Assembly (NCBI RefSeq): GCF_030684315.1
Contig: NC_081383.1
Location: 26,147,942-26,211,941, forward strand
Direction of reading: 5' to 3'
Length of the DNA: 64,000 nucleotides
Source of the DNA: Stegostoma tigrinum
Lineage: Eukaryota
Position 1 is the first letter of the stretch. The number at the start of each line of letters is the position of its first letter. Made by a program: the position numbers and the translations under genes. The notes under the pieces were generated by a model that saw only the letters and a program-made list of their open reading frames with translations, made no database searches and was not told where the DNA came from. Of this stretch, positions 19,825 through 64,000 are shown one piece after another.

Positions 19825-20744
19825 CAATAAGGTTCACAGGGTGTATCTAAAAAACAAGAACTTCTTCATCATTCCTCAAAAAAAGTCTGTCAAAGCTGGC
19901 AAGCAGAAGTTCCCCTTTAAAAAAGCATCCCCAATGCATTGGTTGCTCCTCGATGAATCAAGTTTTACTTTAGTTCCACATGGGCTCACTTCTTAGAAGA
20001 TCCTTCCCAAACTTGCATTTGTTAGTTTCTTACTGCAGGAAGTCTAGGTCTAAATGCTTCTGCCACTGATTATGGCCAGTACCAATGAGACAAAAATATT
20101 GCTATTTCATCATCATTATCATTTCAATGGAGGTTGAAAAGCCATCACTTTGTCTCCCTCTTGATCGGAGAATCTTTTAATGTTTTAGACAATGACTGAA
20201 CATACCCTGTGATGACACGGGAAAAAAAAATGTAACTTTGATAATGGACAGTCAGTAGATCTGAAGAAAATATGTTATATGAAAAGGGGCCACAAAATCC
20301 ATTGGTTTATAAAATAGCAAGAGATCAACCCACAGAAAACTATCTTGTATTGTTGAAAAACGGTGATTAGAGTGTCTATGTTCAACAACTCATGCAATAC
20401 TAAATTATTTCCCCTGCCACATATACATCCAATTTTCTTTTAAACTTATTGAACACTTTCACTTTCACCACCCTCAAAGGCAGCAAGTTCCAAGCCATTA
20501 CCATTCAATGCTTTAAAAAAATTCACGCTCATTTTCTTGTCCAAAATATTAAGTCTGTGTCACCTATACCTGGTGCCACTGGAATATGAGGACTGATTTT
20601 CTTCAGAGGCGTGAGGGTTTTCTGAAACTTCAGATGTCAGCCAAGTATATGGCTCTACTCTTCAAAGAGTGACAATCCCATTCTTCCTGTGACCGTTTGG
20701 TGTTCCTGCTTTAAAGCAAGGTGTTGGTTCACTGCTAAATAAAA

Positions 20745-27814: not shown

Positions 27815-28057
27815 ATTGATTGGGTAGAAAAGTTCATGTTGCACCATCTGATTGGACCACACCCCTTCCCCCAGTCGTGCTATTGGACTGTTTGCGCGCC
27901 CTTTGATGATTGGCGTTACTGTACTGTGTTGTGATTGGTGCTTCTGTCCAGTGTCGTGACTGGCCCGCCTATGCTTGCTGTGATTGGTGGAGGGGTGACT
28001 TCGCGTTCTGATTGGTGGTTGTTGGGGGCGGCAGGCGGCGTGGCGGGAAGGCGGCTG
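27815..28057 (+). promoter_or_regulatory. POLE4 CpG promoter with clustered inverted CCAAT boxes and an E2F-like site
   Basis: ATTGG at 27819, 27851, 27882, 27909, 27934, 27983 and 28011; TTTGCGCGCC at 27891-27900. Confidence 0.75.
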
Positions 28058-28243
28058 ATGGAGGAGCGCGAGAGTGGAGTGGAGCCGGGCCAGAGCCTAC
28101 AGTTGGAGGCCGAGGTGGACAGGCTGGGCCTACAGCATAAACTGCTGCGGCTGCCGCTGAGCCGGATCAAGGGGCTGATGAAAGCTGATCCCGATGTCTC
28201 GCTGGCGAGTCAGGAGGCTGTGTTCGCCATCGGCAAGGCCACG
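28058..28243 (+). CDS. POLE4: DNA polymerase epsilon subunit 4 (histone fold), exon 1
   Basis: MEERESG...RLPLSRIKGLMKADPDVSLASQEAVFAIGKAT|gtgtgt, the characteristic POLE4 histone fold. Confidence 0.93.
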
Positions 28244-29472
28244 GTGTGTGAGTGAATGGCGGCTTCCCCGACCACCACCCAGCTCCCTCCCCTGCCACCA
28301 CCACCACCGCTCCAGGCCGTAACAGTCAGTGTGGCCGGACTGCCCTCGCGGGGACAGTTCGCTCGGTCGTTGCCCGTGTTTCTTGTTTGGTGCTGAGCTC
28401 AGGGCTACTTGGTGAGGGTACATAGTATATTTACCACAGTAATCTCCAGGGGTAAATTACGAGTAGAGATAAGGATAAACGTAAAATACTGGACACTTCA
28501 GATCTTCTTCGGTGTAGCTATTCCTTGAAGAAAAATAATAATGAACTAAACATCCTTTATTCTAGAAGTGTGACCACTAAAATAAAAACCAAACGTTGCT
28601 GCATTTTTTTTTGAAGAGTTATTAAAGTGATGTTCCCCGCCACCCCCCTCCATAGATGCCACCAGATTAGAGGGCATAATCAAAGCCGTAGAGCCAGACT
28701 TTTGAAAAGTAATGATACCTATTGACATACAAGGGTAGTTGAAGTTTTGACCCCCACCTCCAAGCAGTTATAGAAATAAGTTAGAGGCCATTCAGCTCCT
28801 TAAGCCTGCCCCACCACTCTGTAAGATTGTGGCTGATCTGTGACCTAAATCTGTCTACCTGTCTTTGGCCTGTATCCCATAATACCACTGCTTAACAAAA
28901 AGTTGCCTGTTTCACATTTGAAATTAACAACGATTCAGCGTCCACTGCAGTTTGTGATAGAGAATTCCAAACATGTACCACCCTTTTTGTTTAGAAGTGT
29001 TAACTTCTGCATTCATGTACTCTAGTCCTGTAGATATAAAGGCAAGAATTAGCTTTCATGATTATTTTCTGCACCAGTTTGTGACGCTTTTAAACATTTA
29101 GATTTTAAATATTTTTAAATCTAGGTCAATAATTTTAAGGGATACGGGGCAAAAACAGACATGGAGCTGGATTCTGGATCATTTAATCCCTGATGACGGT
29201 GACAATGATTGTCTTGCATAAGAATACTTTAATTTAGTTTAACTCTTAAGGAAACTAGTATCTTGGCATCTGTTTATTGTTTAATAATGAGGCAAAAGCA
29301 ACTTTCCTCATTGTGGAGAGAAACACTGGGAGGAAATGCTACTCCTGCTCAGGACAGAGATGAGAGCTGTATGAGAACTGGAGCAGTATACTGGGTTCCT
29401 GGAGAGAGTGAGTGTATACTGAGCAACCTGGGTACTACAGTGACTGAACACTGTATTTGGTTTCTCCCAAAG

Positions 29473-29557
29473 GAACTTTTTGTTGAAGTGATTGCGAAGG
29501 ATGCATACTCATTTGCTTTGCGGGGCAAGCGTAAAACCATCCAACGAAAGGATGTGG
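29473..29557 (+). CDS. POLE4: POLE4 exon 2
   Basis: aag|ELFVEVIAKDAYSFALRGKRKTIQRKDV G|gtgagt, 85 nt. Confidence 0.95.
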
Positions 29558-29654
29558 GTGAGTCTGTCAGCGGTTTGTTATTCCAGACTGTTTTTGCCAG
29601 CATTAAAAAGGTCTTTGCATTACAATGTATGTGAGTGGCTGTGTTTTCAAGTCA

Positions 29655-30560
29655 GAGTCATAGAAAAGTACAGCATGGAATCAAACTCTTCGGTCCAACT
29701 CATCCATGGAGACCAGATATCCTAAATTAATCTAGTTCCATTTGCCAGCATTTGGCCCAAATCCCCCCTCAACCCTTCCTTTTCTTATACCCATTAAATG
29801 CCTTTAAAATGTTGTAATTGTACCAAGCTCCTCCACTGACTCTGGGAATTCATTCCATAGGTGCGTCACCCTCTGCATGAAAAAGTTGCCTCTTTGGTCC
29901 TCCTCAAATCTTTCCCCTCGCCTTAAACCAATGCCCTCTAGTTTTGGACTCGCTTATCCTAGGGAAAAGACCTTGACTATTCACCCTATCCATGTCCCTC
30001 ATCATTTTATAAACCTCTATAACGTCACCCCTCAGCCTCTGACATTCGAAGGAAAATAGCCCCAGCCTATTCAGGCTCCCCGTACAACCCAAACACTCCA
30101 TCCTTGACAACATCCTTGTAAACCCTTTCAAGTTGCACAATATGCCTCCTATAGGAGGGAGACCACAACTGAATGCAGTACTCCAAAAGTGGCCTAATCC
30201 ACGTCCTGTCTGCTGCAACACGATCTCCCAGCTCCTATACTCGATGCACTGATCAATAAAGACATGTGTATCAAATGCCACCTTCGTCACCTTGTCTACC
30301 TGTGACTCCACTTTCGAGGAACAATGAAACTGCTCTGTGCAAGTCTCCTTGTTCGGCATCATTTCCCAGGACCTTACCATTAAAAGTATAAGGTCCTCAC
30401 ATTTATCTAGATTAAACTTTATCTGCCATTCCTCCGCCTGTCTAATCAAGGTCCTGTTGTACTCATAGGTAACCTTCTTCACTGTACAGTACACGGCTAA
30501 TTTTGATGTCATTTGTAACTTGCTAATCATACTTCCTATATTTACATACAAATCATTTAA
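29655..30560 (-). mobile_element. 5'-truncated CR1 LINE in POLE4 intron 2
   Basis: ORF remnant ..WQIKFNLDKC..RLRGDVIEVYKMMRDMDRVN..SKTRGH followed by a CR1 3' UTR. Confidence 0.85.
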
Positions 30561-30672
30561 GTGCTGAGCTAATCTTGTGTGAAGGTGGGACTGCAGTGAT
30601 GAAATAGTCAATTGTTGGTTTGTTTGGAAGTTGTCAAAGTTGCTAGATATTGTATTTTTATTTCTCTTTCAG

Positions 30673-30714
30673 ACAATGCAGTTGATGTTACAGATGAATT
30701 TGCATTTTTGGAAG
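30673..30714 (+). CDS. POLE4: POLE4 exon 3
   Basis: tttcag|(D)NAVDVTDEFAFLE G|gtgagt, 42 nt. Confidence 0.93.
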
Positions 30715-31011
30715 GTGAGTCCTTCCTCCTTATTTAACAGCCATAACGTTGTTTTGTTTTGTTGTTTTCTCCTGTCAGTCCTTCCTACACCAGTGGAGAA
30801 GGCACTGCCGCTGCAAGGTGCAGCAGATAGAATTACCTTGAGTCGAGCTACTGATGTGAAGGCTGAAACTAGTTGACTTCCACAGTCTGTCAAGACTGTT
30901 GTTAATCTTTCACATGAACAATTATTGCATTAATACAATGTACCCTCCATTCACTCAATTACTTTTCTAATCTATTTTTAAAAGCACCTTTAATCAAATT
31001 GTCGGGACCAT

Positions 31012-36077: not shown

Positions 36078-36481
36078 TTAATGGCACCCACAGCTTCCGG
36101 CAACCATGTCATCATACTGTTTCAGGACCACATTTTCATCATCATCAAAATAGAGAAGATTAATGGAGAAAAGTTTGTCTGGGATACAGCACGGAGAAGC
36201 TACATCATTGGCTAGCTTAAGAGCATTGATAATGGACTGAACAGTGGCATGGTTGGTAGGTCTCATATTTTTGCCCAGTGGGAAGACGCATGCTCCTTTA
36301 CAATGATAAGCATTGTACCCTCGAGGGGAGATAATCCAACCAGACCAGCCAATCTCTTCAAAGTCTACATATAGATGATGTCTCTGACATCCTTGGAAAT
36401 GTAAAGACCTTGTGTTCCGGTTCTGGCTTGCTTTGTTCTGAAGAATTCTGTGAGAGATAAATGGATTCTCTGTGCCCATAT
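36078..36481 (-). CDS. admp: Anti-dorsalizing morphogenetic protein, exon 5 (mature TGF-beta/BMP domain)
   Basis: cag|AT..; furin site RNTR, then the 7-Cys domain CQRHHLYVDFEEIGWSGWIISPRGYNAYHCKG..MRPTNHATVQSIINAL..PCCIPDKLFSINLLYFDDDENVVLKQYDDMVAGSCGCH, diagnostic of ADMP. Confidence 0.95.
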
Positions 36482-37951
36482 CTGTAAGTGTGGAGTATAA
36501 TGAGTTAAGTCATCTTATGTATTCAGGGGCCGTTTAAAAACAAAAATCTTTACTTTCCCTCAAGATACCAGCACCATCTGTTAAAAAAGCAAATGTTGCA
36601 GATTTTGGACATTGAATATTTCCAGCATCTTTCTATTAGCTTGCTTTTTGGAGAAAGAAATAAAGTTAATTTGACCTGAATCTTGTACTGCGTTTCAAAG
36701 GAGACTGTCAGACCTAAGTATCTGCTGTTTTTATTAATGACCTATGTATTGAGTATGTCAGCAAGGATTTAATTCTTTTTAATTCTCATACTTAGTGTCA
36801 CCATGACTGAAACCAGTTTTTGGAAACTGGTTGGATCCTGCTGTGCTGGATTATGGTAATACTTCAAGTGAGAAATCTTTAGATTTGTTAGCTTAATCTC
36901 AACCAAGCATTACTATAGGGAGGTAGAGGGAGAGAATAGCTTTGACCTTTACAGCTGTGAGAGTGCTAACAACTTAAACCAACCATGGGTTTACCAAATA
37001 CATTAGCTCTCTGGCTCAAAACCGTCAAGTGTGCACTGTGTTGCAGTTATGTTTTCAAACTCTTCCCAGCTAACCCTGTAAATGACTCAGTCGGCTTCCT
37101 TGCTTTTTCTGGCATGGTATTACCTTACAGCAACACGTTGACTGTTACAACTGACTTTACTCCGGTTCCTGTTTTGTAGAAGTCTTTAAAGTAGTAGAGA
37201 ATGAACCCTGTTTCAATCAATTCACCCAATGTAAAACCATGTAACTTTCCCTCGCTGTGAACAGTTTGGCAGCGCTTTTGAGTGTACTTGCAGTAGATGG
37301 ACTGTTGCTGTTCAGGGTGGCACCTCACCATCTTAGGGCAGGGCAACAAATGCTTGTTTTGCAAGTGACACCATTATTCCATGAAAGTATTAAACGTTAG
37401 TTCTCCAGTGCTTCACCCAATCTGCCAATGTCCTCTGGATGTGGATTAAATGCGAAAGCAGTTTAAAATTTTAAAAAGCCAATACATATCTGCATGAAAT
37501 GTAGGGTATTAATTAGGATTAGAAATAAATAGCTACCGTGTAAGGTGAAGGAAAATGAATTGGCTATCCTGTCTTTTATAGTAGTAAAGTGTTTTATAGC
37601 TTTTCTCTGCCTCAGTCTGGCAGTCCTGAGTGTAAATAATTTAGTCTGAAATAATGTAACAAATTAGGAACTAGAGCTATAACTTTCCATGGTGTGTACA
37701 GCTGAGCACAATACCAATGGATGCATGAAGCCTTCAAACCATCAGGAATTTAAAGTTCGTTACTTTTTATATAAATGAATAGAATTATAGTTTTGACTCT
37801 TTAAATGAATTTGAAAGAAGACCATCCATAAGGGACCTAACTGAGATTGAAAACAACTAGTTGAAGTATGATTCTTATGAGACCTTTCTGTAGATGTGTT
37901 TACAGCGATAAGGTGGATCATCATCTTTGGTACCAATCATAAGGACTTCAC

Positions 37952-38147
37952 CTTTTAATGACGAGGAAGTAGTAATTCCTCTCCTCTCCTCATCTGTGAA
38001 GAGGACCAGCATTGGTTGCTTGCTGCTGTGATGGTCTCTTGCTGTGGCAAAGCGGACAAAATGATTATTTGTCTGCTGCCCGGCCAGAGTTTGCACAATG
38101 ACCATCAGGCCCTTGTTGCTCTTTTTATCGTGTGTCCATGTGTACAC
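37952..38147 (-). CDS. admp: ADMP exon 4 (prodomain)
   Basis: cag|VYTWTHDKKSNKGLMVIVQTLAG..VRFATARDHHSSKQPMLVLFTDEERRG..K G|gtgaag, 196 nt. Confidence 0.92.
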
Positions 38148-40555
38148 CTGCACAAATAAAGAAATCTTTCATCATCTAATGCAGCAAGTGTTTCACACAG
38201 AGTAGGATTCTTGTGTCATATCTCCTGAGCCACTGCTAAGTCAACTGTGGCAGATGTCAGATACAGAACGAAACTTGGAATGAGAAAAGGGAGTTATGTG
38301 CCTTCGCCTTCAATCTCAGAACAGTAGATCCTACTGCACAACAGTGAGATTTCCAATTTTCACTTGCAAGACAGACACATCTGAGGTTATTGCGCCTAAT
38401 GTTGCTTACCCATCTAGAGCGAGGAAAATCCTGAATGAATTGTCAGTATTCTTGAAAAACAAGTTTTTGACCTCCATTACTAGAATACCTGTTTACTTTG
38501 TGTGATGTTCATATCTCTCTTGTTTTGCACATTTTAAATCTCTGTTCTTGTTTTAGTATCCTGCATACATTGGATTAATTTTATCAAATATATTGTTTAA
38601 TATCATTAAATTTATGCGAGGCCCAACTCAGTACTTCAAGGTTTTAAAAAGTCATTCCTGATGAACTCGATTTGTTCTGAATTAATCTCATGACTTTACT
38701 TTCTACCATTCCAGTAGATTAAATATTCCCTTCTTTAAAACCAAAACAGTGCTGGGCATAGCTTCAGATCAGGATGCTATTTATTTCACAGTTTTAGCAC
38801 TATACTTTCTGACATAATTGGTTACAGAATATAACTAAGCATTCTGTTTTCTTTATAGTTAATGGTTTACCATGTGTGAAAAGACTATTGTTGCTCTGTC
38901 TTTCTGCTTTACCATACCTTACCCAACAGTTGTAGGAAATTTATTTTTCAATCACCCCTGCAGCCTTGAGGTGAGAATTAATTTGGTGCCAAATCATAGT
39001 TGGGTACCTGCTATTGAGCCACAGATGATTAATCCAGTCTAGTTTACGTTCTAATTAGTTTGATTATTTCTATACAGCATTGACTGACATGAGCTGTTTA
39101 TCCTCTCAGTCAAATATAAATTTGTTAATGTGGTTCATTACACCAGATCGCAGCTGGCATCTGTATGCTGGTTGGTCTGCACAGTGTGCCCTAGCATATT
39201 GCTAAAGGCTGAAGTATGGTGTGGTTACTCTACAAATAAAATAGCATAACAAATAAGAATAATAATATTGTCATGTGTGTAACCAGGAGAAACACCTTCC
39301 TAACTTCTAACCCGTCAAGGTATAACAAGATTCTGTGCATTTCCTACAATATATTTTTCTACTTTATACTAAAAGGACTGTAAAGTTTAACTTTTAAAAG
39401 TTCTTTTGTTTTTCTATTTTGTATTTCGACACCTTTGTATCTGAGATGGGGACTTTGTATAGTTTACACCGTACTCCTATATTTGTGTACTTGAGTACAC
39501 GTAGCAATTATAAGTTACTCCTAGAAATCTAATCAGCATTAGTTCACCTACTGCTGCTGATATAGCAGCTATAGGTTTGATTATTCTCACAACTGTAATG
39601 ATCAATAGCAGGACATAGATGTTTCTGTGGAACAAAAGGGCATTCAGTTTTTGAATGGCGGGTTCTCAAAGCAGTCCAGTCAGTCCCGCTTCCCCCGTTT
39701 GATCCCTAGCTGTACAATTTTCTTTGGCAATCATTTGGTTGTTTCCATGTCTACCACACTCAGAGGCAGCATGTTTCTGGCTATTACCACTGGGTTTAAA
39801 AAAAGTCATCTTCTCATTCTTATGTGTTCCATAGACCTTGTACCATCAGCTATGGGGAAGTGTTTGTATTTTCTTAGCTTATTTAATCAAATTGGGATCT
39901 TGATTCCACTATCATTTCCAAGGAGAACAGCCCAAGCCATTGCAATCTACTTTGTAAATAATCTCCTCTGTACCCTGTTAATGGTCTTCCCATCTTTTAA
40001 GTGCCATGACTGGAACTGGACACTACTGTAATTATGGTCTAACCAGAGCATTCAAAGATTGAGTGTAACCTCCTGTATGTTTAATGTAGGACTTTCAAAG
40101 AGCTGATAGAAAAAGTAATGTTTGTGGAAACTTGCAATTTTAACAGTAAACTCTTATTTGCATAGACCATTTAAAATAATTTACATTTTGTAGTGTATCT
40201 GCTCTTAAGATTGTGGAGGCCTTACAAAAGGAAAATGTATTTCCTTCACAGATTATTCTACACTAATATTGCAAGGTCCTGTCCAAGCCACTCACTACCT
40301 TGACTTGGAAATATATTGCTTTTCCTTCACTGAGACTAGATCAAAATTCTAGTCTTCCATCCCTGATAACATTATGGGTCTATTAATATGTCATGCCAAA
40401 TAAATATGGCATCACTTTGTGGGGAATGGTACAAGTCAACATGGTCCCTGTTGCAACTTGAGAGGGCATAGTGATTAGTGATCGTGTGGATGTGGTCATG
40501 TTTCAAAAATTAATCCTCTAAGTATTATTGAAGGTTATGGTGCACTGTAACTTAC

Positions 40556-40678
40556 AGCCTGGGTGATTGTGAAGACCTCCCACGTGCTGTCATGGACTGC
40601 TAGTACTCTGGATGACAGCAATCGTTGTCCCTCTGCTGTAGATGTGTTACTACTGTCCAGTATCTGGTAGACACTGAC
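40556..40678 (-). CDS. admp: ADMP exon 3 (prodomain; absent from the ORF track)
   Basis: tag|VSVYQILDSSNTSTAEGQRLLSSRVLAVHDSTWEVFTITQA|gtaagt, 123 nt, phase 0 at both ends. Confidence 0.92.
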
Positions 40679-41420
40679 CTAAAATAGAGTTCACAGCTCA
40701 GCCAAGTTGTTACTGCTAGTTATATTTCAAACAAAGCCAGAAAACAATCAAAGTGAAATCATTGCACTGCTCCTGACCGATTAATTAGAAATTACAATTA
40801 CGAAGGACTCGTAATTACTGAGCTCGGTTTGATTCATTTCTTAGTTCTTCCTTCTTTCCTGTCAGATACTTTGGGAGAGGAGAGAGAAGGTGCAATATCG
40901 AAGTTAGGCGCAGTCTTGACATTTTTGCGTTGTCTATCACACTAATTTCCAATGAACCTTGTATATAAAACGTGGCAGAATCAGTGTAAACAATTGGGGT
41001 CCGATGATCAAATTCAGATATTTCTTTTCTGAGGTATAGCAGCTGATGTTTTAGGGCAGTTCCTCATTCATAAATAGAACGTACACTTGACACTTTTGGG
41101 GCCAAGTGTAACATTGTGGAACTGGATGAGTGAGAACGAGGAGCTTCTCATATCTATTTGGGAATAATACGGAGAATATTGTTAAACGGCCCTGTCAATT
41201 CACCCACGGTGGGAGGACTTCTTAAACTGCAGAGAAAGACTTCTGGATCTTTGTTTTTTTCGGAATTACGTTCTCACTTTTGTGCCCCTTTGAATTTCTT
41301 TCCGGCTTACTTGCCTCCGCCCCTCTCACTTTCTTAGACTTCAAGACAGTCTGAGAGAAACTGTGTTCTGTCCCTTACTGTGGGTTAGTGTCGATCTGAA
41401 GAGCCTCGCACCGCCCTTAC

Positions 41421-41563
41421 CTGACAGAAATGTTGCCTGTGGTGCAGTGTGTCCCGAAAGAGCCGACCTCTCAATTTGAACAGATGCAGCTCAGCGGAAA
41501 GAATGGTTTCGCTTTTAGCCACACTGGACAGGTTGAAAAAGAACTGGAGTTGCTGACTGCGAC
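41421..41563 (-). CDS. admp: ADMP exon 2
   Basis: cag|(S)RSQQLQFFFNLSSVAKSETILSAELHLFKLR..HFCQ|gtaagg, 143 nt. Confidence 0.93.
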
Positions 41564-41660
41564 CTGGGAAAGAAAACATGCAAAGATGAGCAAGGGAAGG
41601 TTGGGGTTGGGGTTATCAGTAACTAACACTTGAAGCGACTTGGAACCGCTAGGGTCTCAC

Positions 41661-41940
41661 TTCTATCCAGGAAGCTGCGCACCGTGTTTCCCACCAGTAG
41701 ATCGGGTTGCTTAGTCACTCCGTCCACGTCTGCCACTGCGTTGTAAAGGTCCAGCATATACTGAGGGGGCTGGCGGACTCTGTGAGGGGACTGCGGGGCA
41801 TCCACCATCCCGAACACCTCTAGCAGCCTCTTTAGTGCCTGGGAGCGGACTTGCTGGTTGTGGCCAGGCAGACTTGCGGCGCAATTCGGCCGCAGAAATA
41901 TGAGGAGGAGCAGTAGCGAAGCTCCGAGTCTAGAGCACAT
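41661..41940 (-). CDS. admp: ADMP exon 1 (signal peptide and prodomain start)
   Basis: MCSRLGASLLLLLIF signal peptide; ALKRLLEVFGM..QPPQYMLDLYNAVADVDG..GNTVRSFLDR A|gtgaga. Joined CDS is 1146 nt (381 aa) with no stops. Confidence 0.93.
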
Positions 41941-53000: not shown

Positions 53001-53139
53001 TTATATCGTCCCATGGCATTTGCCGAATTTGATGAACTTTCCAGGTCAGCTCCTGAATGCGAGAGTTTCATATTCCTGAGGGGAACAACCATTCGATGAG
53101 CTGTCTTCACAAATCAAGCGCTGGTCCTTCTGAGAATTC
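53001..53139 (-). pseudogene. pnhd: pinhead terminal exon (disabled)
   Basis: tttttttgag|G AAT.. translates (R)NSQKDQRLICEDSSSNGCSPQEYETLAFRS*PGKFIKFGKCHGTI*, resembling the recalled Pinhead C-terminus (C.PQ.YE...FRSR.G...CKC). In-frame TGA at 53048-53046; acceptor is GAG. Confidence 0.75.
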
Positions 53140-53265
53140 CTCAAAAAAAAATGGGACGAGTTATCTACATCTTCGATAAAGAGAACAGATTTCACTTATG
53201 GAACTTTGGGTAAGTATTAGCAGTGAATAGGGGACATAACTTGAAACTTTGACAGTGAGTACCTC

Positions 53266-54949
53266 TAAGATGAATATGAGATTTAGGATGGAGAGCAGTA
53301 GCGATATTTTACAAGAGCTCATAAGGCTATTGAATGCACTACTAGTACCAGGATTAAAGCACAGACCATAGTGTATATTATGTACAAGTTTCGCCAAAAC
53401 TCTTGCAAAAATATTAATGGATTAATCAATATTTCAACACATCACAATCTTGTCAAAAATCCAACCAGCCTTTAAGTACAGTACATTCAAAACGCAGCTG
53501 AACAGTTACTGCATCACCGTCTTTCATAAATGTCCTTTCAACTCACCAACTGACTATCTGCAAGAGCTAGAATTACACAGGCCCCCTTAAGTTGAAGTAA
53601 ACCAAACTCAAAAAGACACACAGATCATGGCAGGAAGGTCAGCATCCTAGATTTCATATTCTGAAACAGACCTGTAAAACCAAGCTGAACTGTACTGTTA
53701 AGTTTCCACAGAATATAAGAAATCAAATAGCAATAAGTGATATTTTCTGCACAGTAGGACAATTGCAGAATTGTTCCTCTCAATAGAAATTATTTAAAAT
53801 TGTCTATAATAATAATAATCTAAATATTATATCTCTACCAGAGTGTCAAGCATAAGTCATTTACAGAGGTTAGATGTCTCTTTTGTTGACTTGCACAAAG
53901 CTGGATACCTCAGTAAATTCCACAGAAATTGGATACTCCTGAGAGAAATACATGAAGATTGGATACAGTACCAACAAATAATGTTGCGTATAAACTGTAT
54001 TTTGCCTCTAACTTTGTCTTGACTTGCTGAAGAACATTATATTGTTTATTCTGTGTAAGGTAAATGTCACATTTTTAAATCATGTTTTAATACTGTAAAA
54101 CCTATGGCCCAATGTCTATAGTACTGAATAGAAAGATGAGGTATATCATTGCAATTAAGTGAAGGCTACCTTGCACACTAAAAGTCTGGAGATTTTAGTT
54201 GAACATAACAATGGGAAGGATCTTGTACATTCAACATAAAGATCTCACTAATAATTTAAGGATCTATGGATATGTGAGCCTTCAAAAGAATTTCCAGTGG
54301 CACATCACTTCGGCATGTTTGTATTCCACTGACACGATTTTAGCATGGCAGTAATTTAAGCTGATACTTTCTCTGAAATAGTGATCCAATGAACACTTTT
54401 GGAGTGCACTGAACATTCTGCTAATTATCTTGTGATATCTTCAGATAGCTTTGCAAGAAAGGCAGTATGTAAATCTTTTCAATAAAGCAATAAAAGAACT
54501 CTGATTCTTAATATCATAATAAAATAATGGATTACCTTTGGCTTTTGTTTTTCTCTCTTGAGGTTTCTATTTCTGTACTACTGTTTCTTATTTTAGCATT
54601 AAAGCAAATTCACTTAATCCCTTGTGCCAGCTTTGTTTCCAAATCCATTTAATTCACTTTCTTTTGAGCACCTAACCAACTTGCTTTTAATGTTGACATT
54701 GACAGTAGAATTTCCCCAGAGATTCTCCTGATCTCCCTCTGTAACTTTGCCAGAAATTCAGAGAAATAGCATAAACAGCCACTTAAGCTGTTGCTGTGGC
54801 ACATCCATTAATGTTTTGGCGAAACTTGTACATAATATACACTATGGTCTGTGCTTTAATCCTCGTACTAGTAGTGCATTCAATAGCCTCATACGCTTCT
54901 TGTAAAATATCACTGCTGTTCTCTATCCTAAATCTCATATTTAATCTTA
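53266..54949. repeat. About 135-bp inverted repeat pair (53266-53400 and 54813-54949) in the last pinhead intron
   Basis: Direct comparison: the inner ~75 bp has one mismatch and overall identity is roughly 90% by eye. Confidence 0.85.
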
Positions 54950-55337
54950 TGTTCCCTCATTTTGAACCCTCAATCTGGAAAAAGATGTTTTCCATTAATT
55001 AAGTTCTATCTTTTCATGACAAAAATTAATAAATTAAGTCATATTGAACTTTCTTCAAACACAGCTAAAAACTTGCATTTTTCATCACATTTGCCTCCAC
55101 ATTTGTATTTTCTTGGCAGGCAGGCAGTGTCCTGTTAAACCCTCCTTGTATCCTCTATTGTCTTAAAAACTTTACTAAAGTGTGAAACCAGAATCTGCTC
55201 AAAATACTTCTGCTATGATTTTACTATGGTTTAATATACCAGTGCACCTTGACTTTTGTACTCTCTATCTTGAGGTAGAACACAGCATGCTATTGGCCTT
55301 TTACTGGCCTATGTTGTTTGAGGTGGAGCAAACCTGA

Positions 55338-55595
55338 ACTCCTAAATTTGGCCAAGATAACAAAGTGTGGAGCTGGATGAACACAGCAGACCAAGCAGCA
55401 TCTCAGGAGCACAAAAGCTGACATTTCGGGCCTAGACCCTTCATCAGACTCCTCTGATGAAGGGTCTAGGCCCGAAACATCAGCTTTTGTGCTCCCAAGA
55501 TGCTGCTTGGCCCGCTATGTTCATCCAGCTCCACACTTTGTTATCTTGGATTCTACCGCATCTACAGTTCCCATTAGCACTCCTAAATTTGGCCA
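55338..55595. mobile_element. Penelope-derived foldback element with 17-bp target-site duplication
   Basis: Arms 55352-55448 and 55453-55549 are near-perfect reverse complements around a 4-nt loop; actcctaaatttggcca occurs at 55338-55354 and 55579-55595. Confidence 0.85.
55454..55482 (+). ncRNA. Minimal hammerhead ribozyme-like motif (representative copy)
   Basis: CTGATGA a GGG tctag g CCC GAAA catc: conserved CUGANGA and GAAA boxes around a short stem II, as in Penelope terminal repeats. Activity not demonstrated. Confidence 0.6.
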
Positions 55596-55837
55596 CTCTT
55601 GCTGACTGCAAGTACAGTTCATATTTTTGAAATACTTTTGCTACAGTGCAGGCAGAATTTGTCTCTTGGGTTTGGACCAAGTCTCTATGGGCAGCAATAC
55701 CAACTCATTTAGTGCCCAAATTTACCAGCTGTCATGACATTCACCAGGACATTAACATTAGCGAAACTCAGTATCAGACTATCTTTCGGAAAACATGTCC
55801 GTGGGGTGGGGAACATACCTGGACCAACCGTGCACAT

Positions 55838-55896
55838 CTGAAGTGACAGCCATTTCCTGCAGTACACACTCCCAAACATCTGCCAGTATTGATTTC
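55838..55896 (-). pseudogene. pnhd: pinhead penultimate exon (disabled donor)
   Basis: ttacag|EINTGRCLGVCTAGNGCHF(R), 59 nt, matching the recalled EIDVGRCLG.C..GN.CLLR. The donor reads AG|atgtgc instead of GT. Phase 2 joins the terminal exon correctly. Confidence 0.8.
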
Positions 55897-56006
55897 CTGT
55901 AACATTATCACAACAAAGAGGTTCGGTCACGACAGGAACTAATGTGATGCACAAAAGCCAAACACTGAGCAAACTGCAGCTGCTGAGTAATTAACACCTC
56001 CAGTAT

Positions 56007-56187
56007 CTTCAGGCCCTCTTCCTTCTCACCGCTGGAGTTAATGGTGATCACAAAGTAATACTCCACATGGGGCAGTCTGGAACAGTTCTGTCTCACCTCA
56101 CACAATTCCACAGTTTGAATAAACTCTAATCCATTTGGATTCTCAACACAACTGTTTCAAATTTGGTGGGTACACATCCCAAGCCAC
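56007..56187 (-). pseudogene. pnhd: pinhead internal exon (frameshifted)
   Basis: ctgtag|GT GGC: GLGCVPTKFETVV, 1-nt deletion near 56146, then ENPNGLEFIQTVELCEVRQNCSRLPHVEYYFVITINSSGEKEEGLK. Matches recalled CVPTKF..VE.PN..E.IQTV..CE....C.R.P.VEY....G.KEE.LK. The donor reads AAG|atactg. Confidence 0.82.
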
Positions 56188-57734
56188 CTACAGGGAGTAA
56201 ACAAAACAAAGGCAATATTTTGAGGAAAGAGATTGGCTTTCTTTAATGATGATATTCCCCTAATTTCTTCGTTAAGGATTAACTCAGAGAACATTACATT
56301 AGCAGAACCTACTTTAGGAGGGAGCTACACAGTTGTACCTCAACAGCAGTGAGCACTTGTATCTAATATGGAGAGGACGCTGTAATTTTGGGTACAATGA
56401 TTAGAAACTTAAATGTTATGCAACTTTTCAGCCTTGATCACTATCTGCAAGTCTTTTTAAAATTCTGCCATGAATTTTATATAGCTATTTTGTTTATTTT
56501 CTCCATAAGATTAGGTGTCCCCATCAATCAGTAGCAACCTATTGTCCTGTCCCTTATTCTCGCTCTTACTGCTTGTCCCTTATTTTTCTTTATTCATTCA
56601 TGGAATGAGGGCACTGCTGGCTAGGCAACATTTATTGCTCATCCCTAATTGCCCAGAGGGCAGTTAAGAGTTAACCACATTGCTGTGGGTCTAGAATCAC
56701 ATGTAGGCCCAGACCAGGTAAGGATGGCAGTTTCCTTCCCCCAACATCTGAAGAAGGAATAAGACTCCAAAAGCTTGCGTTTTCAAATAAACCTGTTGGA
56801 CGATAAATTGGTGTCATGTGATTTCTGACCTTTCCTAAAGGGCATTAGTGGACTAGATGGGATTTTCGCTGACAAACAATGGAGTCACGGTGATCATTAG
56901 ACTTATAATTCCAGATATTTATTGAATTCAAATTCCACCATTTGCTGTGGTGGGATTTGAACCCAGGTCCCTGGAACATTATCTCAGTCTCTGGATTAAC
57001 TAGCCAGCGCCTACCCTCCAAGCCATCTTCTTCCCCCATCCTGATTTCAGTTAGGATGGAGTCTAATGTCTACTGAAACTCCTCTCGAAGGTTACTGATC
57101 TTGCATTACATAAATTAGAGTTAATGAAAATTAAATTTGGCAGCGATGCAACAGGCTATCATTAACTATCATCCATTTTACTGTATCACATGGGCAAAAT
57201 CCACCACCACTCTCTCCCCCCCCCCCTCCCCGACCCTTACTCCGAGAATACACATCAAGACCCATGTAAATTACATAGCAAAGTTTCATAGTGGATCAAA
57301 TTTTCCTCGACCCATGGTGGTAGACTTGGAGTTAGGACGGGTCAGCTTTGTGCATGGGAAGTGTGCCCATAATGAATTCTCCTTAGTTCACTTCGTGGCA
57401 GCTCTTCACACAGTGTCTGGTTGTTTAAAACATGTCTAATTCCTTTCCTCACAAAACAGCACTTGGCATTAAATTTCTTTTTATGGAAACCTCTTATGGT
57501 TACAGTTACAGACAACAATGACCTCTCTTTCAGTGAAAGATAGTGCATTTAACACTGTTTTATAGGATAGACATCAAGAAATGGTATGTGTACTTGTTGA
57601 GGAATTCAAAGTGACAGGTCAGAAGGATCAGATATCATCCCCAGTAAAGAATCCAAGATAAACATCTTATCCTGTGAATGTGGAATGGAATATGATTAGA
57701 ATGTGCAGCTTGTTACCATGTGGACTAATTGAAG

Positions 57735-58020
57735 AACAAAGTGTGGAATCAGGCCATCAGCCCAAATTGACCCTCTGAAGGCCATCCTGCCCAGACTCAC
57801 CCCACATCTCCCATGGCTAATTCACCTAGCCTGCACATCCTTGGCAATTTAGCACAGCCAATAAACCTAACCTGCACATCTTTGGACTGTGGAAGGAAAT
57901 CCACACTGATACAAGGAGAGTGTGTAAACTCCACACTGGCAGACGGTCACCTGAGAGTAGAATTGAACTCAGGTTCCTGGTGCTGTGACACAGCAACACT
58001 AACTGCTGAGCCAATGTGCT
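57735..58020 (-). mobile_element. HE1-like SINE, reverse orientation
   Basis: Reverse-complement similarity to 19028-19357. Confidence 0.8.
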
Positions 58021-59309
58021 GCAATAGTTTCGTATTGCAGGGGAAGCCTAATAGTGTAAGGAAGAAAGAAGTGGAAGCAAGGTGACCAGATTTCAAAAGT
58101 CAAAACTGGAACCCTTTAAAAAGTCAAATGAGAAGTTGACACATCAGTTGCCAACAACAGGAGTCTGCAGAGGTCTTTTGAAGGTGGGAGGGGATGTGAT
58201 GACATCTCCCAGAATGTTTCAGCCAGAGTTGGCAATCCTTTACTGTAGATTGTTTAAAAAGGCATCTCAGCCTGAGGATTTTGGGTAATCCAAGATAGAG
58301 GGTGGGAAAAGAATGTGGATGTAAGAGTTGCTCCTTTTTTAAGTTGTTTTCAGTGTTGTAGCTGATTTCCTCGAAATCTAGGAGCAGTAGTTGCTGTTTT
58401 ATAAGCTGTGGCATTGTTTTGGAACTTTGTGGGAAAAAAAAATCAGAACAACAGCACTTTTATAGGTGAGGAAGAGATGAAGGTAGTGGTAGTGACCAGA
58501 TGGGAAGTGATTCAAATGGAGAAAGAAACCCACACTGCTGTTTGTCCCAGAAGTGAGTCTGTCCGCTATTGCCTCTGGTGTTCTCTGGACGTTGGAGTTT
58601 GTCTTCATGCAAAGGCTGGTGGATGTATGGAATGAGCTTCCAAAGGAAATGGTAGAGGCTGGTACAATTACAACAACATTTAAAGAGGCATCTAGATGGG
58701 TATATATAAATAGGAAGAGGTTAGAGGCATACGGGCCAAATACTGGCAAATGGGACTAGATTGATTTAAGATATCTGGTTGGCATGGACTGAAGTGTCGA
58801 TTTCCATGCTGCACATCTCTGACTCAGCAATAGAGCCATTGGCATGAAAGCCATAGTGACTTGCCCAGGGGGCAGTAGAGAGAGAGCTCTAAGTCCTCTG
58901 CATACAATACAATGCGATGCAATGTAATTAATTGTTTTCAGGAAGAAGGATGAAATTTCCTACAGATTTTCTCTGCCAGAGCCAGTTTGTATTTGACAAT
59001 GAAAGGGGAGAATGTGAACCATGTATATTCAAATTATTTTTAGGATGTTATTGGGCCATCAGGATATTTAATGAAAACTTGACTTCTAGTAGTCCAAGTG
59101 GAACAATAAAGTGTTAAGTATAGTTGTGGCAGGAAGGACATGCCATGCATAAACATCAGAACAAACCAACTAAATTAAATGGCTTGTTCTGGTGCTGTAA
59201 ATCCTTTGTAATTTCTGTTCCTTTGTTCTACCCAAAGACTTGGACAGTGACGTTTATAGGAGAGAAAATAATGCCTGAGCTGGAATTTTCTCTTTTTTTG
59301 TATCCTCAG

Positions 59310-62300
59310 TGAACTCATTCTATGAGATCCACTTGGCTGACATCATTATAATCACGACATCCCTCCACCTCTGTGTCCAAGGACACAGGCCGGTCCTTTT
59401 TTTAAGCTCCACCTGGGGTTTTAGCACCAGGTCAGGTTTCTCCAACTCTGCCTCAGATACAGGATTTTGCCTGTTGTGTTCAGAGTGCCTCATTGTCTTC
59501 TTCAGGCAGCAAAGGCCTCCAGGCCATGATATCTGCCATGTCCATCTCAAATTCCAAGCTATGTCAATGCCTGATGGAGAGGGAGAACCCAGTTCTAGAA
59601 CACTCCGAAAGGCTGTCGAAGCGCTGGGCATGTTTTGCTCCTGCACCATTTGCGAGTTTGCAGCTTTCATGTGGCGCGTGTGCTTGTTCAGAACTGTCAC
59701 ACCTACCCAAAATTTATATGTCAATGGACATGACTTCACATTGATCATACCTTTTACCCATGTAGGGCTCTTCCTATGATTCCAAAACCAAACTTTCTTC
59801 TCTTGAAATAACTGCCTCTCTCACTTCATGAAGTCTTGGGTCTGGCATTGGTGTTGCTGATGCAATTTCACCCTGCCCCACCCCCAGGTCCTGGAAGATC
59901 AGAATTAACCTGGTAAGAAGTTTTCTTCCCAATAACAACTCTGTGGAGCTATCCTTGTAGTTCCATGAGGGTTGGTCTAACAATCAAATAGGAACTAGGA
60001 CAGTTTGGTATCTAGGTAAGATGTAGGCTGTTTCTTTAAGCCTGCCTTCACTGTTTCTACTGCTCTTTCTGATATTGTATGGTGGATGGCCTGGAGCTGC
60101 CCTTATGTCAAATACCATTCAATCTTAGGAAATACTCAAATTCCCTGCTGATAAATGATATCTGAGATCAACACATCCGGGTGTCCGTTTATTGAAAAAG
60201 ATGTGTGCGGTTTCTCTATCGTCGTCTCCGTGAATGAACGCAATGCAAGTCCAGCCACTTTGAGTGGATGTCCACAATGCCTAAGAATAATGAGTCCCTG
60301 AAAGGACCTGCATTGTAACCAAGTCCAGGGTTTGCCCAGCCATTCCCATGAACGTGGGAGAGCCACTGGCAGTAATTTGTGTCCTTGTTGGCATTCTGGG
60401 CACTGCCCCACCAAAGCAGCTATGTCTGTATCCAATCCTGGCCACCAGACATAACCTATCACCAACATCCTCATTTTGGAAACTCCTGGAGTTCTGCTAG
60501 TATCTGGCAGCAATCTGTGTTTTGGACAATCGCACTTGCTCCCACAATAAGCTGTCCTTTATTATGATCTGGTCTCCCGGGTCCAAAAAGGTTTCAATGC
60601 TGGTTGTGACAACTGGTTGGTTTCCCCCATCACCTTTAGCTGTTTCAGTTTTGCCAGGCCAGGACCGGATCTATCTGCGTCCAAAATCTGATGTTGTCAG
60701 CTGTGACTGGAAGTGTGTCAAGAAAATTTAAAACCATTACCGACTCTCAGTGGTGGTACTCCTGGTGGTGCATCTGTCAGCGATGAGTGGCTCATTGCAA
60801 CCACATTTGTTAGTTGGCCTCCGACATGGTGTTCCAACTTGTAACTAAGTACACTTAGTATTAGAGCCCACCTCTGAATTCTGCCTGAAGCGATGTGTGG
60901 CATCGCCTTGTCCTCTTTAAAATAGGCCTTGCAGATGTTGATCGTCCATTATTATTACAAATTTACTTCCTTAAAAGGTATCGGTGGAACTTCCCGATTT
61001 CAAATACGACCGGCAAACCTTCCTTGTTTATCTGGGCATATTCACACCGTCCATTAGCCAAAGTCCTGGTTGCATATACTATTGCATGCCCCTTCCATTG
61101 GCCCAGCTATGAGCTAACACTACTCTGTGCCATGCAGGGAGGTATTGCATGTCAATACCACACCTCGCTTGGAATCAGTGTATCAACACCTTACAGGATG
61201 ACAGCTGTTTCTTCACTTCCCTGAAAGCTGTGGCTTGGCTATGTGACTATTTCAAGGCTGACACCTTTTCAAGAGTTGATGTACAGGTGCCAGAATGGAG
61301 GACAGCTTACGTATGAATTTTCCATTCTAATTCACTTGTCCAAGGTAAGACCGAAGCTCCAGTGCAGATGTTGGGGAGCTGGGGCACCTTTGACCACCCT
61401 CACTTTATCTTCCAATCAGTGTAACCCAGTCTTGACAATACTATAGCCCAAGTAGGTCACTTGGGGTGCCTGGAACATACATTTTTTTCTTTCCAAGGCA
61501 CACACCTGCCTGGGAGAAATGCCTATGGACTATATCCAAGTTCTCTAAGTGTACTTTATTGGTCTTCCCTGTAATTAACATGTCATCTAAATAATTGGCA
61601 ATGTGGGTAGACCTTATAAAATATGTTCCATTGTCCATTGAAAAATTACACAGGTTGATGATTCCCCAAATGGCAGTCTCATAACTGCAATTGCAAGTGT
61701 GGCTTGTATAAATCCTCTATGCAAGGTGCTTGATATTTATCCAGCTGCAAACAGCAGTTTACCATTTGTTTAAACTGTTCACAAGGGCAAACTGACCATT
61801 CAGACTTCAGAATTGGTACGGCCAGTGCTGCCCATTCTGCAAACTGGATTGATGCGATGATTCCTTCACTTTTCATTCTTCTGATTTCTGCCTCTCCTTT
61901 TAGCCATAATGCAAATGGCACTGCTGCAGCTTGCAGAATTGTGGAATTTGGGTGGAGTAATTTTGGATTGGGAGGCAGGAAATTAGAATTTGGTATTTGG
62001 TAATGCTGGGGTGTGGGGTTAAAGCATTTTGTGGTCCCTTTAAAATATGTGCTTTTACTATGCTTAGACATTTAAATAGATGTCAATGAGCAGCAGATTG
62101 AAAGTTTGCAGGTACATAGAGAGCACCCGAATTGAAACTTGTATCAAAAGGCCGTACAATTAGCAAGCCAGGTAGCAGTTTTGTTACCGAGACAAGTTTG
62201 AAATTTAGCCAATCATTTTGAACTAGGCGCTTAAATACCAAATACCAATTTAATTTAAATCTGATTTTTTTGACAACATAGGACCAATCCTAATGTAAGA

Positions 62301-64000
62301 AATTAATAGGCCATCAAGAGTATAAATGAAAAAGGCAGTTGGACAAAGATGGGGAGAACTAACTGCCAACTGCCAGAGTTAACAACTCCCAGCTCTCAAG
62401 AAAATTACTGGCTCTCACAGTCATCTCTAAATCTTAAAGAAAGCACCATCTAAATATCAAAGGCACCAATGGGACAACTAGTTTATATTTCTGACAGAAG
62501 AATTGTTGCAGAAGGCATTCCTGACAGAGTATTAACACAGAAGGCACAGAGCATTCCAGAAAACAAATAAACTGGCTGTAATTCTGAGACTAAATTCTAT
62601 TTTTTAAAATTTATTTTATATAAGTGTGACTTATATTTATTGGAACAGCTTAATCTTAGAATCTTGTTTTATTCTGGAATAGTTAGTGGTTAGAAGGTGT
62701 TTCCTCAGTTTAGTTAATTTGTTCACTGTTAGAGTTACATAACCAAATTGTTACTTGTTGACTGTAAAGAGAGAGTCAAGTTTTTTATTTTAGTTAATCA
62801 AAAGAAGTTGCTGAAAGACAAGTTACAGCAATTTTCACACTCCTTTTACAGATTATTAGGGTGAGGTGCTCCTCTTTAGGTGTTTCAATTTTAGTTCTTT
62901 GGGAGGGGAGTGGTCAAATTCCACTTTTAACAAATTGCTTCCTGGTCCACAAGCAAGGTGACCTTGACTCCTTTGAAAGTCTCTAGACCTCCCTCAAAAA
63001 CTTCTGTTTTTTTTTTAAAAGAACTCAAGCAGCCATTTTCTAATAAAAAAAATTGAGCTAATCTAGGTAAACCTTCCTCAACCAATTCTGCCCCATCAAG
63101 ATTGGGCTTGAACCTTTTGCTACAATTAGTGACAAAAGCAGCATCTGTTAATCATAAGAGACCCGAACCAAAGTTGTACCCTTAATCTGTAAGGTACGCG
63201 ATATAAATTGGTGGTCTAGCCAAGATCTTACACAAACTTAAGGGCTGGATTCCAAAGTAAATTTTGCTATTGACTGGTTCTACAATCACTGAAACAGCTG
63301 CACTAGAATCAACCTCCATTACAACCGGGTGACCATTTAACCAGACGTTTATTTTGATCAATTCTGATTTGGATGTTTTCAAGCAATTTAACTGTTCCAA
63401 ACCTTTCCAAGCTCTCCTGGATACCAGCCTATGAGTTATGTTACTCATTTTAAGTCTTGTGGGATTCTTGCACTGTCTTGAGTCGGCATACCAGCAGCAA
63501 CTACAATATCTTTCTGGCCTGGATCCTGAAGAAAATTTGAACCAATTAGTCAAGATTTGCCTTTGTTTTGGGTTTTGCTGTGGGCTGACCTGGAGTCCCT
63601 CGTCAGGAGATGTCCTGTGTAATTGCTTTCACTGTAGGGGTGTTCCCAAACTCAGTCAGACTGGGGAGGGTGTCCACTTCCATCGGAATACCCCGCAACT
63701 CTCATGCTCCACTTGCCACATTTTCCACTGGTAATGCCAGTTATCATGCCTTTTTGACACCTGGTTGTGCTTCAACTCACAGACACTTTAGCATGATTAC
63801 ATCATTAGTCCCACATACCAAACAGTCTCTCAGCATCTCATTAAGGGTTAAACCAAAGTCACATGCATCTGCTGGGCATCTTAACCTAATCAATAATGCC
63901 GATACAGATTTCACCTTATTCTTGAATTGCTAAGTAAAACCAATAGCGTCTCAGAATTATCAGTGGCTTGCGGTCATAACTCTTGAAAGGTTTTAAGATC
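59310..64000 (-). mobile_element. Decayed Gypsy/Ty3 LTR retrotransposon (gag-pol remnants), interrupted by an insertion at about 61960-62930
   Basis: Protease (VWLNGHPVVMEVDSSAAVSVI, about 63300), RT (WAALAVPILK; YLDDMLITG, about 61580), RNase H (RIQRWALILS) and integrase (GVSKMR..YVWWPGLDTDI..CPECQ) in Gypsy order, with many stops and frameshifts. Confidence 0.88.

Follow-up and report, generated by a model that had tools for sequence, protein, structure and literature searches.

Does the zebra shark, Stegostoma tigrinum, still make the secreted protein Pinhead? The window, a stretch of 64,000 nucleotides of its genome, carries an intact admp and, upstream of it, three minus-strand segments that the original prediction read as the remains of a pinhead gene (pnhd). 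We asked whether these segments descend from pnhd, whether the gene is dead and single in this genome, how old and widespread its loss is, and how the loss could have been tolerated.

Structure and neighbourhood of the pnhd remnant

The three segments are exons 5 to 7 of a seven-exon pnhd gene, and their junction phases (0, then 2) are those predicted. Exons 1 to 4 lie 6–14 kb past the window's right edge, with additional lesions (contig coordinates below). The original prediction had three of the seven exons in view.

56007..56187, minus strand: pnhd pseudo-exon 5, residues 191-251 of Pristiophorus Pinhead (tblastn and frameshift-aware alignment)
55838..55896, minus strand: pnhd pseudo-exon 6, residues 252-271, open frame (tblastn and frameshift-aware alignment)
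53001..53139, minus strand: pnhd pseudo-exon 7, residues 272-322, stop at 53003-53001 (tblastn and frameshift-aware alignment)
56188..64000, minus strand: in-window part of pnhd intron 4 (13.9 kb in all, rich in repeats)
G000:C38:26218326-26218060, minus strand: pnhd exon 4, beyond the window
G000:C38:26218963-26218821, minus strand: pnhd exon 3, beyond the window
G000:C38:26224189-26224101, minus strand: pnhd exon 2, beyond the window
G000:C38:26225567-26225498, minus strand: pnhd exon 1, beyond the window

The homology goes well past what chance would give. In a search of 5.8 billion database sequences the exon-5 frame matched five shark proteins named pnhd (E 3e-18 to 6e-17). Used as tblastn queries, these five proteins recovered exons 5-6 (E about 1e-27 to 1e-30) and exon 7 (E 3e-8 to 9e-13), significant alignments that leave the pseudogene reading standing. 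Exon 5 is 73–80% identical to intact shark Pinhead, and about two thirds of the aligned remnant residues are those of the shark consensus. The start ATG and all seven exons persist; together the exons span residues 1-321 of the intact orthologue P0003, and exon 1 can still be aligned to the hydrophobic N-terminus of Pinhead. A Pfam search of two pnhd pieces matched no family.

The remnant has six introns (110–13,931 nt) and sits at the orthologous locus, which rules out a processed pseudogene. The exon 6/7 boundary falls inside an Arg codon in read-through models of other vertebrates, so a junction at the nearby canonical sites is not ancestral; it may serve as a cryptic bypass. U12-type AT-AC introns have the donor consensus ATATCC; the donors here lack it and the acceptors are AG, and we rejected this class. 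A 166-aa open reading frame at 59320-59820 was also rejected as a pnhd exon, as it had neither a Pfam match nor tblastn support.

Three neighbouring genes place the remnant:

36078..41940, minus strand: admp, intact, five exons (41940-41661, 41563-41421, 40678-40556, 38147-37952, 36481-36078)
27935..30716 (ends approximate), plus strand: POLE4-like gene, synteny marker
11768..19833 (ends approximate), minus strand: NIM1K-like kinase gene, synteny marker (Pfam Pkinase, E 3e-35, and open reading frames)

The admp gene is intact, as predicted. Its spliced frame is open over 381 aa, its four introns are all GT-AG, and its product, with the Pfam domains TGFb_propeptide and TGF_beta, is identical to P0127, the named Admp of Stegostoma tigrinum. 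Compared with 16 other cartilaginous-fish models, its TGF-beta domain (103 sites) differs at 1–9 positions. A piece of bird POLE4 matched the POLE4-like gene by tblastn at 29470-29577 and 30672-30716 (Pfam CBFD_NFYB_HMF, E 9e-4, is below the cut-off). By its sequence the kinase is a putative NIM1K-like one. The remnant lies in tandem with admp, directly upstream on the same strand (11,060 nt from the pnhd stop to the admp ATG) and near the POLE4-like gene, the position of an orthologue. Passages of PMC12111056 describe pole4, a nim1k-like gene, admp and pnhd together in teleosts, and the tandem pnhd-admp order matches the accounts given there and in parts of PMC6989304. No lipase-family gene adjoins pnhd (the nearest of 41 genome matches on the contig is about 18 Mb away), so the teleost link to lpl is not kept in the zebra shark.

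Judged by sequence and position, the remnant is a pnhd orthologue by descent and not a working member of the family. It resembles the Pinhead genes of sharks, Latimeria, teleosts and Xenopus in sequence, in its seven-exon order and in its same-strand place upstream of admp, but differs from the working genes in a frame of at most 27 codons, the loss of 4 of 20 cysteines and a repeat in a splice donor.

Lesions, copy number and constraint

The seven exons carry five frameshifts (exon 2, -1; exon 4, -2, -1 and +2; exon 5, -1), three in-frame stops (a TGA and a TAG within exon 2, a second TGA in exon 7), an insertion in a donor, two AT donors and four lost cysteines. With ancestral splicing the first stop comes after 27 codons, and we infer that such a transcript would encode a signal-peptide stub and be degraded. 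Of the conserved cysteine framework, 16 of 20 positions are still Cys, every one of them downstream of a break in the frame.

Most of the predicted lesions were found as described. Exon 5 has a 1-nt deletion at 56146-56145 that leads to a TAG at 56128-56126, and the two predicted Cys losses in exon 7 are Cys279>Arg (CGC, 53120) and Cys316>Gly (GGC, 53024). The TGA at 53048 stands where eight of eight intact shark models have Arg; that it arose from CGA, as had been suggested, is presumed. The two donors read as GT>AT are indeed AT (at 56006, where the Chiloscyllium model has Val, GTN, and at 55837), and a GAG acceptor precedes 53139. The changes at the exon-6 donor and the exon-7 acceptor nevertheless count for little as lesions: splicing from GTATGT at 55818 to the acceptor TCTCAG, whose last base is 53130, would keep the frame. 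An apparent third GT>AT donor, at exon 4, proved to be a 373-nt repeat inserted with an 8-bp target duplication. The C-terminus, predicted to be shortened, lacks about one codon at its end and another at the start of exon 7; the main loss is internal, a 15-nt deletion at 53033 that removes five residues.

Long-read assemblies frequently contain indel errors, and lesions of this kind could in principle be errors of assembly or consensus. Short-read contigs of run X4, from the same organism, matched the window over 52900-53400 and 55527-56300 with 0 differences and 0 gaps, which refutes this for exons 5-7. X4 is one of four public runs (two samples) that hold 95–96% of the window's words, and may come from the assembled individual. 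No RNA run was among those listed for the window. The 15-nt deletion also occurs in a close relative (organism B), the adjoining admp is free of errors, and polishing cannot produce missense decay or a repeat insertion. We regard the chance of such an artefact as negligible. Run X15 (organism C) covered no pnhd exon; its single unique contig was identical to the window.

The remnant is the only pinhead gene detected in the genome. All six matches of a genome-wide shark Pinhead query fell at the pnhd locus, as did three of a Xenopus query, whose two other matches had E values of 0.85–0.94; a DNA query gave one match. These two protein queries and one DNA query revealed no second copy, with best candidates scored in an assembly that may be incomplete. 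That scope is what would favour a dead duplicate whose working counterpart lies at another locus or was missed by the assembly. We consider this very improbable, as all three queries point to the pnhd locus, the remnant sits next to admp and pole4, where an orthologue belongs, and no protein identical to any pnhd frame of the window was among the database matches listed. Models with intact cysteines in eight non-carpet shark species indicate working orthologues in outgroups (function is inferred from conservation). The evidence thus supports the predicted unitary pseudogene, and on its coding lesions the zebra shark is a candidate natural knockout of Pinhead.

The pattern of substitution is that of a gene released from selection. 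Near-invariant Pinhead sites were changed at 15 of 62 positions in the remnant versus 20 of 492 pooled over eight intact shark models (p 6e-7), whose counts are lowered because these same sharks supplied the consensus. Within the remnant, near-invariant (15/62) and variable sites (41/116) had changed at rates that did not differ significantly (p 0.17). Core cysteines were lost at 4 of 17 positions, versus 4 of 2068 in 122 other models. The terminal branch of the remnant (0.44) is far longer than those of intact sharks (0.01–0.09); that of Admp is 0.026. Between the zebra shark and organism B, exon 7 differs at 7 of 139 listed sites, five of them non-synonymous, versus 105 of 1713 in introns (p 0.71). 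By these site-class and exon/intron comparisons the remnant appears to evolve neutrally. A metagenome scan for orthologous pnhd DNA gave 157 pattern matches, none of them confirmed.

Age and probable spread of the loss

Organism B shares the 15-nt deletion of exon 7 and very likely the TGA at 53048, judged from the listed differences (6 of 20 in this piece are not listed). It keeps the base deleted in exon 5, and so is without that frameshift, and has neither Cys279>Arg nor Cys316>Gly. The shared lesions indicate that the loss is older than the zebra shark as a species, and imply that these older lesions were fixed. Constraint would have been lifted before organism B split off, but no earlier than about the time at which bamboo sharks diverged. 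The prediction that this shark lineage lost Pinhead and kept Admp is supported; the loss itself goes further back and probably reaches beyond a single lineage.

Among the 120 of 179 matches listed (proteins of at least 177 aa), carpet sharks and rays contributed no full-length Pinhead, yet Admp is on record in five carpet-shark and seven ray species (12). The only Pinhead models found in these groups were Cys-deficient fragments, of 133 aa in Chiloscyllium and 154 aa in Mobula. They lack 1 of 5 and 2 of 9 cysteines that were lost in 4 of 2068 cases elsewhere, and have long branches (0.21 and 0.25). Repeated loss of pnhd in carpet sharks and rays is therefore likely on these comparisons, as is a separate loss in rays. 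The remnant and the Chiloscyllium fragment share one clear derived residue, versus 13 and 10 private ones, and are not grouped in the tree (support 35–59), so that carpet sharks may have lost the gene once or more than once. No Callorhinchus entry stood among the listed matches for pnhd or for Admp.

Alternatively, the loss could be limited to Stegostoma tigrinum and organism B, the short models being working genes that were badly annotated or assembled. Chiloscyllium and Mobula are known here from protein models, not DNA, three of the eight intact shark models are also N-terminally truncated or mis-modelled, 59 of the 179 matches were not listed, and proteins below 177 aa were outside the search range. 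We nonetheless find a loss so confined unlikely, given that both fragments lack cysteines that are almost never lost and lie on long branches, and given the contrast with the Admp record. A broader proposal is that the pinhead-admp pair was repeatedly uncoupled in sharks and rays, always by loss of the Pinhead protein (one or two events in carpet sharks and a further one in rays) with Admp kept, and that the remnant may persist as an element serving admp, either cis-regulatory or non-coding. We advance it tentatively, at slightly less than an even chance.

Tolerance of the loss and its meaning

We consider it quite probable that the only detected pinhead of this genome was broken by frameshifts, stops and splice lesions beside an intact admp, and that the loss was tolerated through Admp feedback in early dorsoventral patterning, a buffering step proposed by analogy. 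According to passages of PMC6989304, zebrafish pnhd single mutants are normal with admp up-regulated, and double mutants are dorsalised; the loss is for this reason less surprising than the original prediction held. If BMP/Smad signalling represses admp in sharks, as the zebrafish data suggest, losing Pinhead would remove a ventral pro-BMP and Chordin-clearing activity and admp would rise. The raised admp would restore the gradient and make a pnhd null nearly neutral; pnhd could then decay, and admp would become the indispensable arm. Passages of PMC8188501 report that Xenopus Pnhd binds and antagonises Admp and that the notochord becomes narrower when Pnhd is knocked down; from this one would expect tolerance to arise by another route than Admp buffering.

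Another proposal is that Pinhead was an Admp antagonist and was replaced in carpet sharks by another cystine-knot antagonist, Dand5. The predicted structure of the intact orthologue P0003 (not of the remnant; pLDDT 80.7) gave no Foldseek match at E<=0.001, the top rows being of the TGF-beta family. In the VIA comparison the model most resembled Gremlin-1 (Z 6.9, rmsd 4.9, 91 aligned) and NBL1 (Z 6.1, rmsd 4.0, 81 aligned), which would fit such a replacement. These values are middling, however, and tied with other cystine knots (the 12 structures scoring Z>=5 all belong to cystine-knot proteins, each below Z 8). In favour of replacement, the zebra shark genome has six open loci recognised at the level of the DAN family; against it, Dand5 is mainly known as a left-right inhibitor of Nodal. 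Among cartilaginous fishes, passages of PMC12344233 report Dand5 retained only in Orectolobiformes, a pattern that mirrors pnhd among sharks, but one clade is one data point, and rays, without Dand5 in the same account, are seemingly Pinhead-less too. We find replacement by Dand5 improbable.

The protein could also be dead and the locus alive as a cis-regulator, transcription through the remnant or internal enhancers setting the admp boundary as reported for Ciona. Passages of PMC6989304 (citing Imai 2012) attribute the mutually exclusive expression of pnhd and admp to a conserved mechanism acting in cis, and the retained ATG and 7/7 exons would fit it. Exon 5 diverged at 8 of 59 residues, versus 79 of 221 in five other exons (raw p 0.0008), but it was chosen post hoc with the data already seen, and is the best-conserved exon of intact sharks as well. 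Chiloscyllium differs from the remnant at just five positions over the first 27 codons of intron 5; in exon 5 itself the difference is 12 of 59 residues, about the same as in the intron. Against organism B, 55803-56299 is no better conserved (25/497 versus 105/1713, p 0.39). We think a live cis-regulator unlikely, though less so than a role for Dand5.

The loss of Pinhead has partial parallels. In mammals pnhd and admp were lost jointly, which passages of PMC8188501 interpret as coevolution; that too is a natural, lineage-wide loss of Pinhead, but both genes are gone, whereas the zebra shark keeps a strongly constrained admp and a readable pnhd remnant. The zebrafish pinhead null likewise lacks Pinhead, has an intact admp and is viable (PMC6989304, in part), but it is experimental, whereas the shark loss was fixed over evolutionary time, with putative compensation. 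Nodal1/2, Dand5 and Vg1-type genes, like pnhd, act in signalling before organogenesis and have disappeared from some lineages of cartilaginous fishes while others retain them (PMC12344233); that review mentions Admp once, for mammals, and its passages contain no pnhd decay in sharks or rays. We found no report of pnhd loss in sharks or rays in the literature searched; species lists of the cited papers and of Imai 2012 may bear on its distribution.

Pinhead is viewed as a redundant pro-BMP partner in zebrafish, as an Admp antagonist in Xenopus and as one of a coevolving pair in mammals. A loss of Pinhead only, with close relatives keeping it, separates these three views and makes it possible to ask what maintains the linkage, protein function or shared cis-regulation. 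As a unitary pseudogene whose intact counterpart has mild single mutants, the remnant refines this picture and does not overturn it. Passages of Yan et al. name animals without pinhead as the place to seek compensating ligands. If the loss is as proposed, carpet sharks, among them the bamboo and epaulette sharks bred in laboratories, would be standing natural Pinhead nulls with the catshark as intact control, a means to test whether Admp covers for Pinhead. The readable remnant, with its dateable repeat insertion, would also allow the loss to be timed.

Lesions of the pnhd locus

The window contains a real unitary pseudogene of pnhd beside an intact admp, as the original prediction had proposed. 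The three minus-strand segments it named were correctly placed, with phases joining 0 then 2. The homology to Pinhead that it proposed for them was also right, because the longest open piece of segment 1 had five protein matches (11 candidates), all from sharks and all named pnhd (75-80% identity), and these five proteins recovered the three segments by tblastn, with no match below E 0.3 elsewhere in the window. We found no second copy in the genome: the six matches of the intact Pristiophorus Pinhead all fell inside 25 kb at this locus, and the Xenopus protein gave three matches there and two unconvincing ones elsewhere (E near 1). The window corresponds to G000:C38:26147942-26211941; when neighbouring stretches are included, pnhd spans 24.6 kb and has seven exons, of which four lie past the right edge of the window. 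The exon 6/7 junction falls within an Arg codon, according to read-through models of other vertebrates. Intron 4 contains decayed frames at 59300-63700 (protease-, RT- and integrase-like) that we take to derive from an LTR retroelement.

Lesions of pnhd (minus strand; positions outside the window are window coordinates extended past 64000)
Exon 2: 1-nt deletion near 76242; TGA at 76190; TAG at 76178
Exon 4: acceptor reads CAA (an AG three bases further could substitute); frameshifts at 70319, 70177 and 70157
Exon 4 donor: 373-nt repeat inserted, G000:C38:26218059-26217679 (window 70118-69738, extended)
Exon 5 (56007-56187): 1-nt deletion at 56146; donor AT
Exon 6 (55838-55896): donor AT
Exon 7 (53001-53139): acceptor GAG; TGA at 53048; 15-nt deletion at 53033

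The 1-nt deletion at 56146, the TGA at 53048, the two AT donors and the GAG acceptor had all been predicted and are all present. However, the exon 6 donor and exon 7 acceptor changes are weak evidence, because cryptic sites at 55818 and 53130 would join these exons in frame. With the ancestral splice sites the frame ends after 27 codons, and we infer that the remnant produces no Pinhead. The lesions of exons 5-7 were recovered in independent data. Contigs of four of the 20 listed sequencing runs were compared with the window, and those of X4, a run of the source organism (it carries the organism label of the runs that best match the window), showed 0 differences and 0 gaps over 52900-53400 and 55527-56300; X4 is a separate data set, though it may come from the assembled individual.

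The exon 4 repeat sits exactly at the donor, displacing the original GT by 381 nt. Scored as present or absent, it can serve to date the loss. It is high-copy, with inverted arms about 94% alike, and is flanked by an 8-bp target duplication (direct repeat). Its family accounts for 43 blast pieces in 264 kb, including one copy in pnhd intron 6 (55574-55354). The decayed frames at 3936-4488 and 13496-13993, presumably of a GIY-YIG/Penelope-type retroelement, are probably related to this repeat family.

Constraint on Pinhead and Admp

We classed Pinhead sites by their conservation across 114 bony-vertebrate models. The pnhd read-through carried a residue other than the shark consensus at 15 of 62 near-invariant sites and at 41 of 116 variable ones (p 0.17). 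Eight intact shark models, pooled, did so at 20 of 492 near-invariant sites against 120 of 911 variable ones (p 1e-8). Sites are not independent in either comparison, and the consensus was built from these same eight models, which lowers their counts. Four of 17 core cysteines are lost in the window, versus 4/2068 over 122 other Pinhead models; this set leaves out Cys268, which varies in intact sharks, and Cys41/42, often missing from models. Cys268 is absent in five galeomorph shark models (Mustelus, two Scyliorhinus, Cetorhinus and Carcharodon) and nearly always retained in bony vertebrates. In the Pinhead tree (exons 1-2 excluded), the window had a terminal branch of 0.44 and intact sharks 0.01-0.09.

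The neighbouring admp (36078-41940, minus strand) has five exons with GT-AG introns and encodes 381 aa, identical to the Stegostoma tigrinum protein named Admp, an identity that assigns the window to the zebra shark. Over the 103 sites of the TGF-beta domain, the protein has one difference from Rhincodon and 3-9 from 15 other cartilaginous-fish models, and its terminal branch is 0.026.

Age and spread of the loss

The introns of organism B, a close relative represented by runs X7 and X12, are about 5-6% diverged from the window. By this comparison the 56146 deletion and the losses of Cys279 and Cys316 are recent, because organism B is intact at all three. The 15-nt deletion of exon 7 is, on the same contigs, common to both, since the only gap of organism B in 52900-53274 lies in the T-run ahead of the exon. 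The exon 7 TGA is very likely common too: no difference is found at 53046-53048 among those listed (14 of 20 in the piece; one contig per run in this bin), despite five listed neighbours. Exon 7 differs at at least 7 of 139 sites among the differences listed, five of them non-synonymous (pN 0.047, pS 0.076), which is intron-like. The remnant is unlikely to keep a cis-regulatory role: exon 5 diverged less than five other pnhd exons (raw p 0.0008), and 55926-56187 (exon 5 with the first part of intron 5) looks less diverged than the others, as a possible overlapping regulatory element might, but comparison with organism B shows no extra conservation of this region (p 0.39). The available text of 10.1101/2022.10.17.512540 estimates the split relevant to the whale shark at around 50 million years ago; if organism B is the whale shark, the loss would predate it.

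Among 120 listed of 179 Pinhead matches there were six cartilaginous-fish clusters (eight species) and no carpet shark or ray. Admp is recorded for at least five carpet sharks and at least seven rays or skates (120 of 889 matches listed, nine clusters opened). An unfiltered Pinhead search (150 of 172 matches listed, 10 checked by name) added two short models. That of Chiloscyllium punctatum (P0266, 133 aa) covers part of exon 4 and exon 5, reads into intron 5 and carries Cys226>Arg; that of Mobula birostris (P0256, 154 aa) covers the last three exons, with Cys220>Trp and Cys290>Tyr. Both carry protein-coding annotation. Judged from protein models only, they are likely decaying pnhd genes in a bamboo shark and a ray. 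The Chiloscyllium tail agrees with 22 of 27 codons of window intron 5 and starts with Val, which, in this comparison, shows the window's AT donor (56006) to be the derived state. The window and Chiloscyllium have one clear derived residue in common and 13 and 10 private ones, respectively, and their grouping was not recovered in the Pinhead tree, which counts against a single early loss. Constraint thus seems to have ended near or after their split, in one loss or two. Pinhead was probably lost, with Admp kept, more than once.

Probable buffering by Admp and losses elsewhere

In zebrafish, a dip in BMP signalling raises admp, so that pnhd nulls are normal; pnhd/admp double mutants are dorsalised (available text of PMC6989304; reviews PMC8034876, PMC8753366). 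The simplest reading is that Admp feedback buffered the loss in the shark: a zebrafish-type feedback would have rendered a pnhd null nearly neutral, after which pnhd would have decayed and admp remained constrained. In Xenopus, Pnhd is described as an Admp antagonist (PMC8188501, in part). The structure predicted for an intact shark Pinhead (pLDDT 80.7) has middling similarity scores to cystine-knot proteins and does not discriminate between a ligand and an antagonist.

We regard replacement of Pinhead by Dand5 as very improbable. The portion available of PMC12344233 (section 22) reports Dand5 among cartilaginous fishes in carpet sharks only, the opposite of how pnhd is distributed among sharks, but rays are likewise without it. 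The genome has six DAN-family loci, all with open frames.

What is new relative to the joint loss of pnhd and admp already known in mammals (PMC8188501, same portion) is that Pinhead was lost while Admp was kept. We found no report of pnhd loss in sharks or rays in a literature search largely confined to main texts outside subscription journals, nor in the accessible parts of PMC11226491 or PMC12111056. For birds, the passages available from two papers report that an expressed pinhead was not found (PMC6989304, PMC8753366), contrary to the bird Pinhead models that exist in the protein database. Several bird-type models (P0056, P0085, P0265, P0269, P0292 and P0302) have been merged with POLE4 during gene prediction or seem truncated. 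Some birds may therefore have a decaying Pinhead, and this could account for the disagreement in print.
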